From contig OZ024747.1 of assembly GCA_964016885.1 (NCBI GenBank), forward strand, positions 33,914,001 through 33,978,000: 64,000 nt of DNA, written 5' to 3'. The stretch comes from Eledone cirrhosa. Its lineage: Eukaryota. Shown one piece after another: positions 9,990-58,189 of the stretch. The position numbers were made by a program, and so were the translations under genes. How positions within the stretch are numbered: position 1 is the first letter of the stretch; every line of letters starts with the position of its first letter. The notes beneath the pieces are model-generated. The model made no database searches and had not been told where the DNA came from. It worked only from the letters and a program-made list of their open reading frames with translations.

Positions 9990-12900
9990 AGGAGAAAGGA
10001 AAATATTTTTAAGGATCAGTTTTTCTTTTCTTTTTTTCTTTCTTTGATTCAGGGGAGGTAAATGTGATTGGCAAAAGTAGGGTTATAAAAGAAATTATAT
10101 TTTTGGAATATGGTTTTAGAGAGTATGAGTGTGTATGTATGTGAGTGTATATATACAAATACACACATGTGTGTGTGCATGTGTATGTATGTGTATTGAA
10201 GTGTGCTGTGTGTGCGTGCTTTAGTTTGTCTGTCAAGGGTCTCTTTGTAGTGGGAAATTAAAAAAGAAAATCAGAGTAAAGCATCAGTGGTGGCTTTCAA
10301 TCAGGTATTTTTGTAAAATATGTGTATGAGCAATTTCTTTCTTATTTCGTTGTGTATGTGTGTGAAGGAGAGCGAGATAATCTAATGGAGGTGATTATAT
10401 ATTTAATTTTGGTTTAAATCTCTAAAGCCCAGCAAAATCTTCCCACATTAACAAATACCACCCCAGCACTACAAAATGCAACCTCATAACATCAACACTA
10501 TGTATCCCAGAAAGAATCCACCCAGACCACTTGAACTCATTACAGAACCCTTACACAATAACAACTACAACATATACCACCCCCATCACCACATTGACTC
10601 TCATGTAAAAACAAATTAAAGACCCATACAAAACAGACAAACAGACTACAATTACAACCAAAACAACATTCCTTTTTTAGGAACGCGACTGAAATTCCAG
10701 GACACCAGATGGCCCCCACTCATGAGAAACCGAAGAAAATTAATCTTTCAAAATTATCATTAACTAACACACAAATTAACATATTAAGTAAGGGACTGAT
10801 ATTTACACCCACACCACAAAAATCTAACTTCCCCGAAATGAAAGATGACATCATGGAATTCTGCCGAAAACTCAGACTAATAGAATACTTCTCCAATGAC
10901 ACCAACACTGAAGATGAATCAATAGTGAGAAACAAAAGTGATGTATGCCCACAGAAAGGGAGGAACAGAACACTGGACACCTACTGCGAACGCACCATCA
11001 AATTTTACTATGAACAAATCACAAATAAACACAAGAAATCGAACCGCTCTAAACACGAATGGAAATAATTATTCACACTTTGAGATAAGACTGACATAAC
11101 CATCAAAGAACCCGATAAAGGGAGCACTGTGGTCAGTATGGAAACTGACTACTATAGGGACCTGGCACTTAAAATGTTAGACAACAGATACTACGAAAAA
11201 ATAGAAAACTACAAACTAACTAAAACAATGGGTGATCTAGAATTACTACAAAAAATACCGCAATAGCCGAACCACAACAGAATTTGAATACATAAGCCAT
11301 TTTAAATGTAATACAAGTGCTTTCTACGGCTTACCGAAGATCCACAATTGTAAACTCATAAACGATGCACGTGACACTTCGACTAACAAATGCTTACAAT
11401 TAACACCACCAAAATACTTAAAACTCAGACCAATTATAGCAGGCCCTGCATGTGAAACACTCAGACTTAGCAATTTCCCGGACTTCTTACTAAAGCCCTT
11501 CCTAAATCATATACAGAGCTTCATACGGGATGACCTTGATATGCTGAACCACCTACCCAAAACTGTAAGTGAAAACACTATGCTTGTCCCCTTTGACGTA
11601 GTAAACCTTTACACTAACATAACCCATAACTATGGGAATAACGCCAATCCAGTGCTGGCTAGACACTCACCAATCTGAAATACCAACACGCATCAACAAA
11701 ATCTTCATTATTGATGGACTCCGATTTATCGAAGAATCTTTCCTTACACATCTCAAAAATAATTGGAAGATATACCTAGACGATTGCATTATACTATTGC
11801 AAGAAAACATGATTACACTCGCTATTTTCAAAAATATGATAAACAACATTAACAATAACATGTAATTCCCAATGGAATCCAACTCCAAGCAATTAGCCTT
11901 CTTGGATATCCTTATTTTAAAAACAGTACCCACGGACTCCAAACAGTACCTCCTCTTCACATCGAATCACCCAAAACATACAAAACTTAACATTCCATTT
12001 AACTTAGCACCATAGTATCAGGCTCATCTAAGCGGGAACAAAGATTAAATGGACTAAAAACACACTTTAAGAGTCTTCCCACTTGACATAATTAATAACG
12101 GAATAGACAGAGCAAAACACGCACATTTTCATCAACTCAACTACCACCGAAAGCACAGAAACACAAACAATACCTTACCATATGTATCCACGGTCAGCCC
12201 CAGAAATACCGAAATATTCGACCACCTACACAAAAACCTCCCCATTCTATTTAAAGGTGAAAAAAGGAAAGATATCCTAGAAACTCACAAGATCATTAAA
12301 AGTAAAATGCAACCCAAATCACTAAAACACTTTCTTACTAGAACAAATATACACAAAACAGTCTCCAGCCTTACGGTAACAAAATGTGGAAGAACAAACT
12401 GTGGCACATACCTATACATAATTAAAGGACAAATTCACTTGAAACTCAGAGAACCTGATCTACGTAATCACATGCGGTGGTTGTCGACATAACTAAATAA
12501 GGGTGTGTCATTAAGCAAAAAATTGACCATCCATTGCCAACAAATCCGAGACGTAAACACAAGAAAAATCGCCTTAAATAGCCACATTTCAGAGAGTGCA
12601 GGAATGACCCTACCCAACTTTAAAATGATCCCCCTTTACAAGTGCTCCAATTCTTTCACACACCAATAAAGAATAAATAAAAACTATTTATTAACAAATT
12701 TAAACCAAAATTAAATATATAATCACCCCATTAGATTCTCTCTACCCCCCCCCCCCCCCTACACGCACACACACACACCACAAAATAAGAAAGAAATTTT
12801 TCATACACATATTTTCCAAAAATTCCTGATTGAAAGCCACCACTGATGCTTTAGTCTCTCTTTTTTTAATTTCCCACCACAAAGGGACCTGTGACAGACC

Positions 12901-15933: not shown

Positions 15934-17322
15934 ATATATATCTTCATGTGTGTGTATATATATTTATATATATGTATATATGTATATATGTGTGTGTGTG
16001 CATCTATGTGCACACAATAAAAGTAACTATGACTATGTCAATGTATATATATATATAGAAACTTTTAGGATATAGGCATGTATGTATGCATATATGTATT
16101 AGGTGGGGTCGAAACACAACCATTTTTAAGGAAACTTAATTCCACTCTATGCACAGAGTTTCAATTAATATTTCGAATAAAATATACAAAAATCAGGGTT
16201 ATGTGACCCCCCGCCCCCGTATGCTTGGCATACACACAAATAAATACCCTAATTTTATATATTAATCATATAATCTCTAACACATATATACTACATTGCT
16301 TCATATCCACATATGAAACATTTGATCATATTTCACTGTAGCAACCTTGTTTAAAACATCTGATGAGGAAATATAGAACAACGTTTAAATATGTGTTAAA
16401 TGATTTTTTTAAAGAAAATGCTAAATGATTTTCTTTTGTTTTTCATATTACTTCAGAGCTTAATATAATTTTACAAAAATGCCTACATAAATTTAAACTG
16501 TAATAATTTAAGTATATAAAATGATATAATGGCAACTAGTAAAAGCCGTAATTCAGCATTTCGATTTCCTGCAGAATTTCCTACAGCAATGACCCCATCA
16601 AAGGCTGATGTATTCTGACATTATTTATATATAAGAAAACGTGAAGAACAGACATCAAAAACTTCACCCACACAGAAAGAATGCTACCAGATTGTTGCTG
16701 CAGATGTGCAAACAATATGGGACGAATTTCCTTTTCCTTAGTTTGAGGGAATAGCTCTAAAAATTGAGAGATTAATTGAATCTGCTTATAAATTAAACAA
16801 AACACCTATCAAGCAGTTGGGAGCAAGATCACATCGTAAAATCCATCATGCAAGGTGGTTAACATGTTCAAACAGAAGATTTTCGTCAGTGGTGCTGGCA
16901 TGTTTCCTCCTGTTGTATTATATGTCTACGCCATCTCTATTTAATCTGTTTATTTATTTATTTTTGTCTTCTTCTCTGCACATGCGTTTGCGTGTGTGTA
17001 TAATGTTTGATGTGTGTTTGCGTGTGTGTATAATGTTTGATGTGTGTTTGCGTTTGGGTGACTGTGTTTTGGTTATTGTAGTCTATCTTAGTTTACTAGT
17101 TTGTGTTTTTCTCACATCTGATGTGAGAAAAACCACAGACCCTCCATCTCAACTCTACTTTTGAAAAGCAGAAGAACTGCGAAACTGGTAAAGGAACCAA
17201 ATATATATATATATTTTTTTAAAAATAAGACTCCAGTTGCATTTTCGATTTCATCTTTTTTTATTTATACTTTCACTTGTGTAGGACAGCTCAGTTATTT
17301 TTTATTTTGTAAAAAATCTCAC

Positions 17323-25606: not shown

Positions 25607-26021
25607 TATGAGGCTGGCTGAAAAGTTCATAGGCAGACTATGAAGTAGTGAAGCTAGAGCTGTGAAATCTTGCATCCATTATTTTCAACTCTTCTTATTA
25701 CTAACTGCATTGTTTCTTTCCTAGAACTGTGTTGAAAAATAAACCTCATTTGGTCATTCCATGAGAGTTTCTTGGCCATCATATGAACTTTTCAGCCGCT
25801 GCAGGGAGAGAAAATATATGTGGGTCAGCTGAAAAGTTCATAGGCTGATTATGAAGGAATGATGCTAGAGCTGTGAAATCTTGCATTCATTCATTCATTT
25901 CATTTCTTCTTATTAATAACTGCATTGTTCCTTTCCTAGAACTGTGTTGAAAAATAAACCTCATTTGGTCATTCCATGAGAGTATCTTGGTTAGCCTATG
26001 AACCTTTCAGCCGACCCTCAT
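25607..26021. mobile_element. Two tandem mariner-type MITE units
   Basis: TIR ta-tgaggnyrgctgaaaagttcatagg / cctatgaacctttcagccgaccctca-ta; ~200-bp unit duplicated. Confidence 0.75.
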
Positions 26022-33040: not shown

Positions 33041-33225
33041 CATTCATACATATACATACATATACATTCATGCATAAATACAGACAAATAACAATGTTGT
33101 CTCTGATGGAGATGAAGCAAGAGTGTATTTGAATACATATAAAACTGAGATAACTCATTGCAAGAATAGCCATTAAAACAGCTAAATGATGTTAAAGACA
33201 GCGATGGACAAAAATGCCTCAGATG

Positions 33226-33770
33226 CCAGAGGTCAGCAACCAGTGGTCAACAGAGAGACCATCCATAAGGTCGGTGACAGGTAGATGATATATGTCTTAG
33301 AGAACAGAGGTCAGTGACCAGTGGTCAACAGAGAGACCATCCAGAAGGTGGGTGACAGGTAGATGATATATGTCTTAGAGGACAGAGGTCAGCGACAAGT
33401 GGTCAACACAGAGACCATCCAGAAGGTCGGTGACAGGTAGATGGTATATGTCTTAGAGGACAGAGGTCAGCAACCAGTGGTCAACAGAGAGAGACCATCC
33501 ATAAGGTCGGTGACAGGTAGATGATATATGTCTCAGAGGACAGAGGTCAGTGACCAGTGGTCAACAGAGAGAGACCATCCACAAGGTGGGTGACAGGTAG
33601 ATGATATATGTCTCAGAGGACAGAGGTCAGTGACCAGTGGTCAACAGAGAGACCATCCACAAGGTGGGTGACAGGCAGATGATATATGTCTCAGAGGACA
33701 GGGACCAGTGGTCAGTGGTTGGTCAACAGAGAGACCAACCACAAGGTGCGTGACAGGTAGATGAAATATA
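33226..33770. repeat. Minisatellite, ~78-80-bp unit, about 7 copies
   Basis: cagaggtcagYRaccagtggtcaacagagagaccatccaNaaggtSggtgacaggtagatgatatatgtctYagagga. Confidence 0.95.
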
Positions 33771-48759: not shown

Positions 48760-51450
48760 TTTGAAAAACCTAAAATAATCAACCTTTCAAATACAAACTT
48801 CTCAGCCCAATAAATTTAAATTCTCTCCAAAGGACTGAAATTCACACCAACACCATAATACTCTAACCTGAATGAGATAAATGACGATATCTCACACATC
48901 TGTAGAAAATTACGTCTCACAGAAGAATCTTTTGACAAGGAGAATAACGACCAATCAATTGTATGGAATAAAAGCAGCTACAACCCAACAAAAGGTAGAA
49001 ACAGAGTTCTGGACAAATTTTGTGACCACATAGCTAGTTTCCCATACTATGAACTACCTCAACGTAAACCCAAACCCAACACGAGTCGAAGGGAATGGGA
49101 GATTATCCATGAACTACAAAACAATACGGACATTATAATTAAGGAAGCGGACAAGGGAAGTACTGTCGTCATTAAGGATGCTGAACAATATAAACATTGT
49201 ATGTTCTCTCTCTTACAAAATACTAACTACTATGAAAGAGTAAAAAACTACCAGCAATCAAAAACGATGACCAGATTAAACACATTCATTTGCCGATACC
49301 AGGAAGACTTAACTAAAAAGGAGCGCGATTATTTAACACAGTTTGAATACAAAACCAGCAACCTTTACGGACTTCCGAAAATCCACAAGTGTAAAATAAT
49401 TAACGATGCCTGTAAACAATCAACCTCAACCTGCGTGAACACACAATACCCCACAGACCTTAAATTAAGACCAATTGTAGCGAGCCTACAATGTGAAACA
49501 CACAGACTAAGCAACTTTATAGACATACTACTAAAACCAATTCTCAAACACATACCAAGCCTTGTAAGAGACGATCTGCACCTCTTAAACCACTTCCCCA
49601 AACATGTCAAAAACAACACTATTATTGTGTCTTTCGATATAGTGAATCTCTACACAACGATCCCACACCAATACGGACTAGAAGCAATAGGATTCTGGTT
49701 AGAGAAATATCCCAATGAGATACCTGACAGAATAGAATAAACCTTCATCACCGAGGGATTACAATTTATTTTACAGAACAACTTTTTTGATTTCGATGGC
49801 AGCACTTACAAGCGGGGACTGCGATGGGTACAAAAGCCGCTCCAACTTATGCCAACTTAGTCATGGCATACTTGGAAGTCCAGATATATGAACAGTCCAA
49901 ATCAAAATACGGATTGAACTTCCACAAATATTTATCAGAGAATTGGAACGATACTTGGATGATTGTCTCATTCTTTGGCCTCACACACTCGACCAACTAA
50001 ATGATTTCAAAAATTGTATTAACGGCATCAATAACCACATCCAATTCACAGTGGAATACAGCCAAGATCAACTCCAATTTCTGGACATCTTAATCTTAAA
50101 AAAAGACACAAATTTTGAAACTGACATACACTACAAACCAACAGATTCCAAACAATACCTGCTATTCATCTCCAACCATCCAAAGCACATGAAGACGAAC
50201 ATCCCTTTTAACCTAGCAAGAAGAATTTGCACAATTGTCTCCAATTATGAAACGCGAAATAAAAGACTTCAAGAATTAAAGGAAATTCTACTCGAAAGAC
50301 AGTACCCACCATTACTGATAAATAATGGCATAGAAACGGCTAAAGCAATAGGCATTGATGAATTACGAAAACAGAAACAAATTCAAGGTACGTCCAATAT
50401 TCTATCATATATCTCAACACACAACCCAAGAAATGCGGAAGCTTACAACACTATTCACAAGAACATCCCACTATTGAAACAAGACCCAAGAATTAAAAAA
50501 AGCCCTTGAAACACACAAAATAATCAAAAGCAAAATACAACCGAAATCACTAAAAACATTACTCACCAATGCCAAATTACCTACCACAAACCCACAACCA
50601 ACTGTCAAAAAATGTGGTCGCTCTAATTGTGGAACCTGCACTCACCTCATTGAAGGCAACGCGTATACATTTCAATCAGGACAAAATTTTGCTGTAAAAA
50701 ATCACTTTACTTGCTCATCAAAAAATCTATTTTATGCCATTAAATGTAAAGGATGCAGTGAAGATTATATAGGACAAACTAAAGTCACACTCAGAAACAG
50801 AAGACAATTCATTGCCAACAATTACGAGACCCTACCACGAGACAGATACCACTAAGTGCACATCTAGACATATGCGCAAATAATAAGACACCAAAATTCC
50901 AAGTCTTCCCATTTTATCTTTGCGCTGACAATACAACCGACGAAATACGAATAAATAAGGAAAATATGTTTATTCAAAAATATAGACCAGCATTAAATAT
51001 GGTTTAATATACATTATGTCAACACCATAACATGCTTAGCACACACCCCCCACACACATAACTCCCTCCTCCATTTCTACTAACAGAATCATTTTCCTAC
51101 ACACACACAGACACACAAAAAAATATATATTCTCTCCATATTAACATGCTAACCATACTCTCACACACATATACACACACACATAACATCCATACACATA
51201 CACAACTCCCTCCCACATTTCTTCTAATAGAATCATCTTCCTACACACACACGCACACACACAAACAAGCACACAGATAAACATACATATCTCTACTTTC
51301 TTTATTTCAATAGAAAGTCTGAATTCTAACACCCCAGCGAACCAGCCATATTCACTGAACCAGAACAATTCTCCCCATCCTATTTTTCTTGACCATTATC
51401 TTTTGTTTGGCACAAAATTATCTAAAAGGCTACAAAATAAATTCCCAAAT
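48760..51450 (+). mobile_element. Penelope-like element 2 (Neptune-type), 5' truncated
   Basis: LSKGLKFTPTP, IIKEADKG, YGLPKIHK, SFDIVNLYTTIP, GTAMGTKAAPTYANL, RYLDD, CGRSNCGTC, NLFYAIKCKGCSEDYIGQT (GIY-YIG with CCHH); coding ends ~51005. Confidence 0.93.
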
Positions 51451-51539: not shown

Positions 51540-54500
51540 ATGAAACGATCAACACATACTTTACGAATAACACAAACCTAATTCAAACAAACGAGGAGCC
51601 ATGTAGCACAGATACACTAGCAACATACAAAATTAAAAACCAAATAATACCACAATTGAACACATCACTCAGAGACAGAAAATTCTCCGTTTGGAAGATG
51701 ATCCAAAACAACAACAAAGCGGAGCTTTATGAAAAATGGTTCAATTCATCCCCATTAATTCATACCCGCAAACTACAGATTAAACCCATCCCAGATGAAC
51801 CCGAGACGCAAAGACGACTAAGGGAATGAATGGCTCTGGAATGAATGAAGAGAGGAATTGAACTTGTAAAATTGAGGGCTCGGACAAATGAGGATAAAAT
51901 AAAATCCCTCGACAAAGAGATCAACCAAGAAATTAACATAAAGACTCAAGGCACCAACCTAGAAAATATCTTTAAACTATGGATAGAGAATTGCAACAAG
52001 GAACTGAAATCCCTTCAACGCTGGGAAAACAGCGAAACTTGGTTTTTGAACTATGGAACAATCTTTCAAACAGAATACGCTTCTAACAACTCCTTCATAA
52101 AAACAAGAAAACCTAAACACCACTCAGACACAGTTCGACAACCAAAAAAAAAAAAAAAAAAACACAAAATTCTCTCCTACCAAAAAAAGAAGGCAACACC
52201 TTACCTTTACCTCTTAATCCAACCACGCAGCAACTACGCGGATACCCATGCAACTTACAAAGAAATAAGATACAATTACCTCCAGGATGGACATTACAAA
52301 TTCCCTCCACGATCCCGAACCTTCAATAACAACAGCAGGGAACAACACAACCACACGAGACAACCCAGCATCAGCAACCGACACAATTTCCTTAATCATT
52401 TTTTAGACCCAGTACACAGACACTGTGAAACGAGATGACACAAGACATACAGGAGAGACAAAAAGTAATACAAGTCATACATTTAGCCACTAAAGAACTA
52501 ACAACCGACCAAATCAACATACTCTACAAAGGGCTGAAATTTACACCGACGCCCAAGCATCCAAACTACTCCGAAACGAATGAAGACATTGCAGAGTCTG
52601 TAGAAAATTAAGACTTAGTGAGGAACTACACAACCAGTACAGTGAGGACGATTCACCAGCGAGAAGTAGAAGCAACTACACCCCATCAAAAGGTAAGAAC
52701 CCATTTCTAGACCAATTCTGTGAACACATTACAAATTATCCATATCAACACCTACACAGACATAAACACCAGCCAAACTTCAACAAGAAAAAATGGGATG
52801 AGCTGAACAGATTAAAGAATGATAAAACTACAACAATCAAAGAGGCAGATAAAGAGAGTGCCGTAGTACTTAAGGAGACAGAATATTATACAACCCCAGT
52901 ACTCTCATCTTTAGAAGACGAAACATACTACGAAAAGTCTCAATACTACAGCCAGCAGAAAATAATGAGAAACCTAAAAACTCTGATAAACTTTTTAAAG
53001 AGAAGGACTTACCGACAACGAATACAACTATATCACTAACTTCAAAAGCAAATGCAGCCTTTTCTATGGTAACCCTAAGATACACAAAAGCGAAAATATA
53101 AGTAAGGCATGCAAGGAAGCCACAGATATATTCATCAATGTCCCCTCACCTAATGACCTCAAATTAAGGCCGAAAATAGCAGGCCCCACATTCGAAACCC
53201 ACCGCATCAGCAACTTCCTTTATATCCTATTAAAACCATTCTTGAGACACATTAAAAGCTACATAAGGGACGACCTTCATAGGCTCAACCACCTCCCCAA
53301 AACATTTAATAATAAACATAACCTACTAGTGTCTTTTGATGTAGTCAACCTATATTTCAATATCCCACACAACCTAGGAATAGAAGCAATCCAATTCTGG
53401 TTAGAAAATTACCCCAATGAACTCCCACACCGCACCATAAAAGAATTCGCAATAGAAGGGCTAACATTTATCTTGGAGAATAAGTAATTTGTATTCAATG
53501 CCAAATCCTACACACAGAAATCCAGGACTGCCATGGGCGCGAAAACGGCCCCCTCTTACGCCAACCTTGTTATGAGCTATCTGGAAATCACCCTCTACCG
53601 AAAAGTACTAGATAAATACGGAATGTCTTTCTACCTCTACATAGAAAGTAACTGGAAGAGATATCTGGATGATTGTTTCATCCTCTGGAATGAAAGTATG
53701 GAAAGACTTATTGAATTTAAAACACTTCTAAATGGACCCAACACAAACATTCAATTTACAATGGAATACAGCCATGACTTGAGCAACTTCCTTTCCTCGA
53801 CATCCTTATACAGAAAACTAACAACAAAATAGAAACAGACATATGCTATAAGCCCACAGACTCCAAACAGTATCTTCCATTCAACCGATGCCACCCGAGA
53901 CACACTAAAATAAACATACCTTACAACCTAATCAAAAGGATCAGTACAATAGTATCTAATAGGAACACCTGCTACATACGACTAGAAGAACTAAAGGACA
54001 CACTCATTAGCAGAAACTACCCACCACCACTAATTAACAATGGATTCCAACGTGTCCTAAAACTCTGTATCGAGGATCTTAGACATCCTAAACTAAAGAA
54101 TGAATTGCAACTGAAAGCTCTACCTTACATCTCCATACACTGCCCGCTTAACAATGAGGCATTCGACACCATCACCCAGAACATACCTTTACTAAAAAGA
54201 TACATAAGAATGAATCAAATCCTTCAAACACACAACATTATAACGAGCAAACGACAACCCAAATCAATGAAAAACAACCTTACACAGGCCAAAGATCAGC
54301 CGATCTTAACAATGAATCCTACAGTAAAACAATGCGGAAGACCCAACTGTGGTATATGTATCAACCTAATCAAGGGATCGGAGTTCTACTTCAAACAAGG
54401 ACAACCCTTTACAGTTAAAATATAACTTCACATGCGCATCAGAAAATCTGATTTATATGTTGACTTGCTCAGGTTGACGAGAGCACTATGTAGGAGAGTT

Positions 54501-55030
54501 CATAGATCCCAAATTAAAATACGGGAATACAGAAAAATATCACAGAGTAAACACATAGCCATCTGTCGCTCTAATGAATAACCCAACTTCAGAATTTTCC
54601 CCCTCTACAAATTTAAAGACAACGCTCCCTACATCCAGCATATTAGCAAAGAATCACACTTTATCATTAAATACGAATCCCTTTTAAATACATCTACTTC
54701 AGATGAAACTGCAGCTTTAACATTACCACCATGGGCAAATTAAGGAAGATATATTTAGAAACATTCCCACTGCAGGTAAATTTTTAACACCAATGGACAA
54801 ACTAAGAATGCCAGCATTACAGAAAGAGATACTAAGAATACTATTTTTAGAATCAATTACACCTTCGGTCAACTCTAAGGTTACTCAATCATTTAAACCA
54901 ATCCCACGGACAGCTCCCTTTACCATTATCAACAGTGATACTATTACTACTACACTTCCCCGTCGTCCCCTTCTGCTTCACCCACCCTTTCTCCATCTTC
55001 CCCTTGCCACACCTATTCCCTGTCCCTCCC

Positions 55031-55593: not shown

Positions 55594-56136
55594 ATATTAA
55601 TAAAAGGAATTCCAACTTTGTCTGATTTACACGTTTTATTTACCATCCTGTAAAATTTATAATGGTATTAGAATGAAATAGTATGCTAGAGTATTAAATG
55701 TTAAGTGTTAATTGAACAAGTACTTTCATGCTTTCGAAATCTTCAGGTTCATATTATGTGGTGACAGTCAAGTTTGCAATTTTCAACTATCAGTTGAAAA
55801 TTGCAAACTTGACAAACTTGACATTTAATATTATACCATACTATTTCATTCTAATACCATTATACATTTTAAAGATATTAGGGTGGTGGATTGGCAGTAT
55901 CGGTAGAGGGTCGGACGCCATGCTTTGACGCATAGAGTTACGGCCTTGCTATTCTGAGTTCAAATCCCGACGAGGTTAACTTTGCCTCTCATCCTTACAG
56001 GGTCGATAAAATAAAGTACCAGTAATGCACTGGGATAATGCTTGCCTTGTGCCAAAAGTAGAAACAATTATACATTTTAAAGGATTGTAAATAAAACGAG
56101 TAAATCAGACAAAGTAGGAATTCCTTTTATTAATAT
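55594..56136. mobile_element. Foldback element (~110-bp arms) interrupted by a SINE
   Basis: tattaataaaaggaattccaactttgtctgatttac.. pairs with ..gtaaatcagacaaagtaggaattccttttattaata. Confidence 0.75.
55875..56066 (+). mobile_element. SINE family 1 with 16-bp TSD
   Basis: TSD attatacattttaaag at 55859-55874 and 56067-56082. Confidence 0.9.
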
Positions 56137-56429: not shown

Positions 56430-56770
56430 TTTGTTTTGCAAGGTTTTTGATATGAAATGGTGTGTTGAAACAAATATTGTTATATTTGGGGAGGTCATAT
56501 TGTAGTAATATTGCAGAAATAATAAAACACACTCACCGTTTGGTTTGGATTGGTTTTCACTTCTGTATCTTTTATATATCCATAGTTAATTTATCTGGTA
56601 ATCAATGTTTATCATGAATGTATATATATAGTCTATCAAAATTCTTTCGTCATACATCTATGACATCGTCAGTAGTACTATTATGTTTCCTCCTGTTATA
56701 TTGTAATGTCTACGCCATTTCTATTTAACTAATATATTTATTTACTCTTGTCTCTATCTCTGTTTGCATG
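56430..56770 (-). repeat. HHR-like family B, third copy (best-preserved core at 56631-56678)
   Basis: Minus: gtacta CTGACGA t gtcata-gatg-tatgac GAAA gaattttga tagac. Confidence 0.65.
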
Positions 56771-57026
56771 TGTGCTTTCTGTTTGGAAAATAGCATAAAT
56801 GGAGAGCATTGAGCAGATAGATAACTCCATACACCAGAGTATAACTGTAACTATCGACTACCGTTTCAAACACCCTAACAGTAGACTACGGAACTCTGGC
56901 TAAACACTATAAGCGAGAGGGACAAAATTCTCCACTCACATTATAACAAAACCATGTCCTCTAAATACTTTATACTAAACAACTCATCAATGTCCAATAG
57001 TGCTAAGTTTAATATTCTCATCGCAG

Positions 57027-57596
57027 ACATTAGTGTCTGCAGTTCTGTTTGCATGCCAGCTCAAGAGCCAGAACGAGGGGCTCATTCTACTGACATGACT
57101 TATAAAAGAGGGTGTTTGCATAATTGCAAATGAATCGAATATTATTATTAATATTCGAAAAACTCAGATTACATTTATTGTATTCAGCCATGAGCGATAA
57201 CTAGTCATTAGTTATTTGAATATGGCAAAGCTCGTATACATGAACCAGGCTGGCCTATCTGTTGATATCCAAATCTGGCTGATCAGTGGGTCTACTAATA
57301 TGCAGATGAGTCTAATCAGCCAGGCTGCAAATATGTAATTCAGGTCGATCAGTCACTGTATATTTCAGAAAATATCATATTTTTTCACCAGCTCTGACAG
57401 TTGGCAGCTAAGCAGTAAACTGCACTGATGACGAGTAATCACCCAGAAACATTAGTATCTGTAGTTCTGTTTGCATGCCAACACAAGAGCGAGAATGAAG
57501 GGGCTAATTCTACTGACATGGCTTATAAAAAGGGTGTTTGCACAATTGCAAACGAATCAAATATTATTATTAATATTCGAAAATCTCAGATTACAT
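57027..57596 (+). repeat. HHR family E: 422-nt monomer plus 148-nt partial repeat
   Basis: Direct repeats 57027-57174 and 57449-57596. Confidence 0.85.
57418..57466 (+). ncRNA. Type I hammerhead ribozyme, family E (slightly degenerate)
   Basis: aactgca CTGATGA cgagt-aatc-accca GAA ACA-ttag-tat C tgtagtt; 7-bp stem I. The upstream copy retains ACA-ttag-TGT C tgcagtt. Confidence 0.75.
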
Positions 57597-58189
57597 CATA
57601 TATATAATTATATGTAATTAAAATCGAGTGACATAGCATCTTACGAACAGCAATTTTTATACACACAGGACTAATGAAACAATTGCTACTACTTTCAATA
57701 AACCATATTATACAGCCGACCCATGATATTATTCACTCCTTTACTATATATATATATATATATATATCATCCCCATCATCGTTTAACATCTATCTTCCAT
57801 GCTAGCATGGATTAGATGGGAATCGTCCCACTTGAGGCAAGATTGGTCGTGTGACCGTGTCTCGCTCGTATAAGATTGTATCTGCCAGGTTTTCTACATA
57901 TGGATGCTCTTCCTAATACCAACCACATTTACAGTGTGGATTGTGAGCCTTTTTACCATGTCTCCTACATAACCACTTTACAGCATAGACTGAGTGTTTT
58001 TTGTCGTGACACCTACACAGCAACTTTAGTGTGGACTGGATGTTATGTGGTACCAACATTACTATACAAAGAAAGTGTGGTGTTGATGGGAATGTGAGGA
58101 TGGATTTGGGGTGTATATTTGATTAAGACGTGCCTGCTGAATGTAGGTTTAACTTCGTATGTAAGGGAAGGTGAGTGTTCTGTATTACT

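Follow-up and report, generated by a model that had tools for sequence, protein, structure and literature searches.

A composite locus of hammerhead repeat and Penelope-like element

The window, by which we mean the whole 64,000-nt stretch of DNA analysed here, contains a hammerhead repeat joined to pieces of a coding Penelope-like element (PLE), the composite lying between a (TA)n run to its left and an AT-rich run to its right (Table 1). Self-alignment of the window matches 57027-57174 to 57449-57596 at 90.6% identity over 149 columns (E 3e-53), and thus the repeat copy has a period of 422 nt and a 148-nt overhang, the terminal repeat being a tandem overlap. The predicted cleavage triplet GUC lies at 57035-57037 and homology begins 11 nt 5′ of the cleavage site, which bears out the sequence-only reading of a block that starts about 11 nt before this site, runs through a full monomer and then repeats 148 nt. 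The 422-nt monomer of that reading holds as the period of this copy but not as a family length, the majority sequence of the family being 438 nt; relative to it, about 14 nt are deleted here.

Table 1. Features of the composite locus (window coordinates; signed positions are relative to the predicted cleavage site).
Feature	Coordinates	Strand	Remarks
Inverted 3′ end of the same Penelope-like family as the coding fragment	56430..56757	-	own short hammerhead, core at 56672, minus strand
Coding Penelope-like element fragment, 247 nt, end of RT / thumb region	56782..57028	+	same strand as repeat, frameshifted
2-nt microhomology at the joint of Penelope fragment and repeat	57027..57028	+	makes the 5′ boundary
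Non-coding hammerhead repeat, one unit, 422 nt	57027..57448	+	position -11 to position -12 of the following ribozyme
Hammerhead 3′ half (stem III, stem I 3′ strand)	57027..57044	+	predicted cleavage after 57037
Sole complete type I hammerhead of the window copy, bulged stem I	57410..57475	+	decayed in stems II and III
Partial second unit, 148 nt	57449..57596	+	3′ end at +135

The window copy is an old, decayed member of an abundant non-coding hammerhead repeat family. Its full unit carries 9.0% substitutions against the family majority sequence. The complete ribozyme, at 57410-57466 within the tabulated interval, comprises CUGAUGA (57425-57431), stem II (57432-57445), GAAA (57446-57449) and stem III (to 57458), with changes that break stem II and G16.2 (GUC to AUC), and its predicted hammerhead fold energy is -7.9 kcal/mol, against -24.8 kcal/mol for the majority sequence. 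The copy holds one and a half ribozymes, fewer than the two or more of non-LTR retrozymes, and an Rfam search at gathering thresholds returned no match anywhere in the window. Its 3′ end lies within the main 3′-end zone of the family (+134 to +147) and is followed by the AT-rich run.

The left flank belongs to another abundant family, with 2,652 genomic candidates, whose homology runs to 57028 and overlaps the hammerhead repeat by 2 nt. Its relatives encode a reverse transcriptase (RT; YVDD), a cysteine-rich linker and a GIY-YIG-like domain, although the Pfam RVT_1 match in these relatives (E 0.0015) is below cut-off. The ORF with RT and GIY-YIG endonuclease that defines an autonomous PLE is present in these relatives and lacking in the repeat; the coding PLE neighbour is also a different sequence family from the repeat and has a short hammerhead of its own. 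The coding fragment differs from its family majority sequence by 12.2%, and the inverted arm, in which homology to the element's 3′ end with its hammerhead was placed at 56473-56757, abuts a (TA)n run with its outer end. The remaining 1.3 kb of the Penelope arm is absent from the window, including to the right of the repeat.

Divergence at the locus is 10.8-12.2% for the Penelope pieces versus 6.2-9.0% for the repeat, a gap that slightly favours two events, without deciding it. Both a template switch in one event and a later insertion or deletion would fit the joint. A direct joint of the repeat to coding PLE sequence occurs at 1 of 176 loci, and frequent fusion of the repeat to the neighbouring PLE family, considered as a candidate, was not seen. 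The -11 boundary is a one-off microhomology joint to a coding Penelope fragment, incidental to the ribozyme.

Several other repeats occupy the window. Further pieces of the left-flank Penelope-like family lie at 1357-2657 (in inverted arrangement) and 16883-17108, and tblastn found other PLE-like ORF fragments at 11253-12699, 49123-50801 and 52922-54695. A hammerhead-like family with a palindromic stem III (CUAG type) is represented at 716, 45100 (-), 45467, 62823 (-) and 63272. The hammerhead-like motif at 55746 (-) matches one that lies about 380-400 nt after GIY-YIG ORFs, on the sense strand, at loci L304, L305, L307 and L315. A short abundant repeat, presumably a SINE, has copies at 57745-57948 and about 56000-56070 and at other loci inserts into the hammerhead family at +100 to +125. 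Additionally, a 215-nt two-copy tandem and a 78-nt seven-copy minisatellite lie at 25617-26013 and 33214-33769.

An abundant, dispersed repeat family

The source genome measures 3.0 Gb and is rich in (TA)n. Searching it with the unit gave 3,253 first-look candidates, 40 of which were scored, and exact core-pattern matches numbered 1,305 (34-nt core pattern) and 78, with none for reversed controls. The unit is about 435-438 nt long, the majority sequence (438 nt, GC 38%) having been built from 24 full matches with one locus counted twice, and copies are 91-97% identical to it. The family is old, its copies diverging by about 4-9% from the majority sequence. The longest ATG-started frame is 35 aa, so the unit is non-coding, and a comparison with the consensus of the Pol III promoter boxes found one A-box-like match and no B box.

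Folded as a circle, the monomer has a predicted energy of -173 kcal/mol versus -98 +/- 5 kcal/mol for 40 shuffles, none of which was as low (z about -14.6), and palindromic internal repeats add to this energy. These near-tandem repeats lie about +235 to +330 from the cleavage site and, in the predicted circle, pair into one long hairpin; copies are frequently 5′-truncated within this same region of the unit. A literature search found no description of this hammerhead repeat family. By its features the repeat would be a new family within a known class, the non-LTR retrozymes.

Ribozyme structure

The hammerhead fold is conserved across the family. Over 54 distinct copies, 93.2% of the cells of a 25-pair type I hammerhead are paired, compared with 25-51% in slid controls, and 0 of 500 shuffles reached as high a structure conservation, a result that kinship among copies can inflate. 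The changes in these copies include frequent wobble changes and 10 double-sided ones, and 95 of 176 copies have an intact core. In some subfamilies (loci L023, L027, L038, L039, L041 and L058), proximal stem I carries compensatory changes (U-A to G-C or A-U), a sign of selection on the fold.

Stem III has 3 bp and a UUAG loop, in agreement with the 4-nt loop noted from sequence alone, and the 7-bp stem I of that reading exists as a proximal stem; pairing nevertheless resumes past a 2-nt bulge with about 12 further pairs, to give about 19 bp in all. The proposal that these features set the ribozyme apart as one able to fold as a monomer, unlike the other families, is weakened. Stem III with its loop is predicted to pair along its full 10 nt with another copy of itself (-8.8 kcal/mol), whereas the hairpin alone is predicted to be unfolded. 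Because stem III is self-complementary, a dimer fold is as plausible as a monomer.

Positions 10.1-11.1, at the base of stem II, form an unusual A-A mismatch in 162 of 174 copies, for which a limited literature search found no published case, a result that does not imply absence from print. Additionally, CUGAUG pairs with CAUUAG in the minimum-energy fold, an inactive rod at -33.4 kcal/mol versus -24.8 kcal/mol for the hammerhead; these energies ignore tertiary contacts. Given the A-A mismatch and the inactive minimum-energy rod, cleavage may be weak and the templates may be uncleaved linear multimers.

Ends of copies across the genome

We mapped the ends of 206 arms from four anchor sets covering 219 loci, 4 of which failed and 9 of which were dropped as duplicates. 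The 3′ ends fall mainly in two AT-rich zones (169 of 206 arms), with 93 arms at +134 to +147 and 76 at +157 to +192, and none ends at the cleavage site. A microsatellite adjoins 160 of the 206 arms, and 3′ ends mostly lie against (TA)n. Adjacent head-to-head inverted arms accompany 77 of the 206, and the outer ends of 54 of these 77 lie in the same two 3′ zones. Together with scattered 5′ ends, the microsatellite association and inverted arms make up a PLE-type insertion signature. Apparent 3′ ends at +100 to +125 were discounted as largely later insertions of another repeat, which adjoins in 14 of 21 cases.

Of the 206 arms, only 4 have their 5′ end at -14 to -8, and only 4 have it at +1 to +5. 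The idea that a 5′ boundary at stem III of the ribozyme is a meaningful end therefore fails on 5′-end mapping, and a sharp pile-up at the cleavage site is likewise rejected by the few +1 to +5 starts. In the first set, consisting of the best whole-unit matches, 5 of 30 loci start at -14 to -9, a cluster that arises because selection for this set favoured copies matching the query from its first position onwards. Immediately 5′ of the cleavage site, a 25-nt bin holds 1 of 45 and 6 of 64 5′-end events. A modest excess occurs at +1 to +25 (22 of 86 versus 6 of 64 in the next bin, p 0.012; 6 of 51 versus 1 of 45, p 0.12), in comparisons from which 4 and 8 loci were dropped and to which an edge effect from the first anchor may contribute. 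Run-off from cleaved RNA and stalling at stem I would each explain this excess.

Most arms are shorter than 1.6 units, yet 47 of 206 are longer than one unit, 12 cross two cleavage sites, and the longest arms encountered outside this mapping reach 2.07 and 2.83 units, so copies do exceed one monomer, as had been anticipated. The cleavage site is traversed by 111 of 151 arms in the two 3′-anchored sets. The cleavage junction is clean, with 1 insertion in 181 passes, deletions at background and no excess of indels; three junction alignments (L149, L163 and L168) probably span inversions. This lack of an indel excess disfavours imprecise jumping from one linear monomer to another.

Because arms exceed the unit and the junction is clean, more than one round of reverse transcription on a circular or multimeric RNA, the mechanism originally proposed, is reasonable, although no meaning is supported for the 5′ end that had been enlisted for it. 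Long arms and clean junctions fit a circular or an uncleaved multimeric template, without separating them. Private variants are common to both repeats of a copy at 8 of 5,470 sites, versus 31 of 100,926 between copies (26 of 30 loci). Thus, with sharing about five times more frequent within copies, the two repeats of a copy come from one source; a circle and a short tandem source both predict such sharing, and the excess is small. Divergence between repeats is 7.6% within a copy versus 8.3% between copies, and most differences between a copy's two repeats arose after insertion. Two complete cores are found at loci L023, L025, L026 and L029, and among 58 two-ribozyme matches none was chained into a long source array.

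Discussion

We consider it likely that a Penelope-like reverse transcriptase/endonuclease inserted the repeat by copying an RNA that was probably circular, with the 5′ edge at this locus being a microhomology joint. A source copy longer than the unit would be transcribed, and its hammerheads would excise a monomer that is ligated into a highly self-paired circle. As the end maps suggest, a Penelope endonuclease would nick (TA)n, and the target 3′ end would anneal inside the RNA at AU-rich tracts (+134 to +147 or +157 to +192), never at the cleavage site. Synthesis would then run back through the ribozyme junction and stop at scattered positions, sometimes past one unit, and the other side of the break would often be primed likewise to give head-to-head arms, both steps matching patterns seen in the arms. 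At the locus described here, the left arm would come from a coding Penelope element, as its 3′ end in inverted orientation; in the right arm, a stretch of Penelope RT would meet the repeat at -11, the two having been brought together by a template switch or by a deletion that accompanied or followed insertion.

That the template was circular is, on its own, a claim towards which we lean only modestly. A less probable account, which we still take seriously, is a linear template, the repeat being a non-autonomous Penelope-type element derived from partial-tandem sources, with a weak ribozyme mostly passed uncleaved and no need for a circle. The A-A mismatch at the base of stem II and the favoured inactive fold argue for it, as do the predominance of arms under 1.6 units and the cleavage of 1 of 9 dimers tested in a 2026 preprint (bioRxiv 10.64898/2026.07.22.740005), and clean junctions are equally compatible with an uncleaved precursor. 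However, arms of 2.07 and 2.83 units require an equally long source, and no chained arrays were seen. The very stable predicted circular fold also counts against a linear template, with internal repeats contributing to it, and the modest +1 to +25 enrichment of 5′ ends may be due to cleaved RNA among the templates or to stalling at stem I.

Two further explanations fare worse. A 5′ boundary set by the ribozyme at stem III, through a structural stop or processing site and with the ribozyme working as a monomer, is very unlikely, being largely refuted by the 206-arm end map. With its bulged stem I and an A as the last nucleotide of loop 2, the ribozyme does resemble a tertiary-stabilised hammerhead, and the first set offers its cluster of starts; yet that set is biased by its selection, the anchor sets hold only the 4 arms that begin there, the window boundary coincides with the Penelope junction, an end defined by cleavage is expected at +1 rather than -11, and stem III is dimer-compatible. 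We give still less credence to a DNA-level origin, in which the 148-nt repeat would have arisen by tandem duplication in place or by expansion of a satellite type, with no part for reverse transcription. The repeats of one copy do resemble each other slightly more than repeats of different copies do, and local amplification of pLTR-derived units is discussed in the same preprint (bioRxiv 10.64898/2026.07.22.740005), but independent local duplications would not be expected to produce dispersed loci with fixed 3′ and scattered 5′ ends, head-to-head arms that share these end sites or a period that is always one unit.

Insertion by Penelope-type reverse transcription accords with what is described for related elements. 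Cervera and de la Pena 2020 (PMC7229834) describe non-LTR retrozymes as short low-GC repeats that carry type I hammerheads and are expressed in circular form, and the 2026 preprint makes the case that these elements derive from PLEs and are non-autonomous (bioRxiv 10.64898/2026.07.22.740005). Like the metazoan members in these two accounts, our repeat has a short, low-GC, non-coding unit that carries a type I hammerhead and is in part repeated head to tail, a predicted highly self-paired circle and co-occurring PLEs. Its unit of about 435 nt is above the 170-400 nt given in PMC7229834 and inside the 51-972 bp of Li, Clavereau and Pollet 2026 (bioRxiv 10.64898/2026.07.22.740005). It differs from the non-LTR retrozymes there described in that its copies are dispersed and mostly below 1.6 units rather than in arrays. 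It also differs in having no sequence found in common with an autonomous pLTR (69 PLE loci), and its cleavage and circular RNA are predictions. The partner search behind that comparison covered 50 of 150 listed GIY-YIG matches, among 10,597 candidates, and at its 69 PLE loci found no autonomous partner sharing the repeat sequence, bar copies of the repeat that lie separately at the margins of L211 and L310.

PLEs with pLTR hammerheads (PMC4209133, PMC8557442) resemble the family in their 5′ truncation, partial tandems, inverted 5′-truncated neighbours and (TA)n bias, and differ in that our repeat has no ORF and that its ribozyme, instead of a minimal core, has a 3-bp stem III and a long stem I with a bulge. 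Cervera and de la Pena 2014 (PMC4209133) already proposed that reverse transcription on ligated circles proceeds past one unit, and Craig et al. 2021 (PMC8557442) report that PLEs are truncated at the 5′ end, have inverted copies next to them and are biased towards (TA)n. As for the ribozyme, axolotl HHR_Amex2 shares the tetraloop stem III and a mismatch at the helix II base, which is U-U there and A-A here, and cleaves better as a dimer; dimeric hammerhead cleavage is reviewed in PMC6765202. Among natural core variants, Perreault et al. 2011 (PMC3088659) report a U-U mismatch at 10.1-11.1, which they call surprising, and it occupies the same positions as the A-A of our repeat.

We also entertain, as a tentative and rather doubtful reading, that the whole locus is one chimeric insertion. 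Here a Penelope RT primed on a ribozyme circle at a (TA)n break would have completed 1.33 rounds and then switched by microhomology to its own mRNA, with the other end primed on the mRNA 3′ end. If true, this single insertion would identify, as a fossil, an enzyme able to mobilise a retrozyme with which it has no sequence in common, and it would imply that a hammerhead with A-A at 10.1-11.1 sustained a family with thousands of copies.

A route for the mobilisation of animal retrozymes has been proposed, with limited empirical support according to the 2026 preprint (bioRxiv 10.64898/2026.07.22.740005). The family described here adds genomic evidence, in that its copies point to priming inside the unit at AU-rich sites, cross the ribozyme junction cleanly and include insertions with two arms. 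Specific to this case are the A-A core variant and the junction to a coding Penelope element, which could indicate the partner enzyme.
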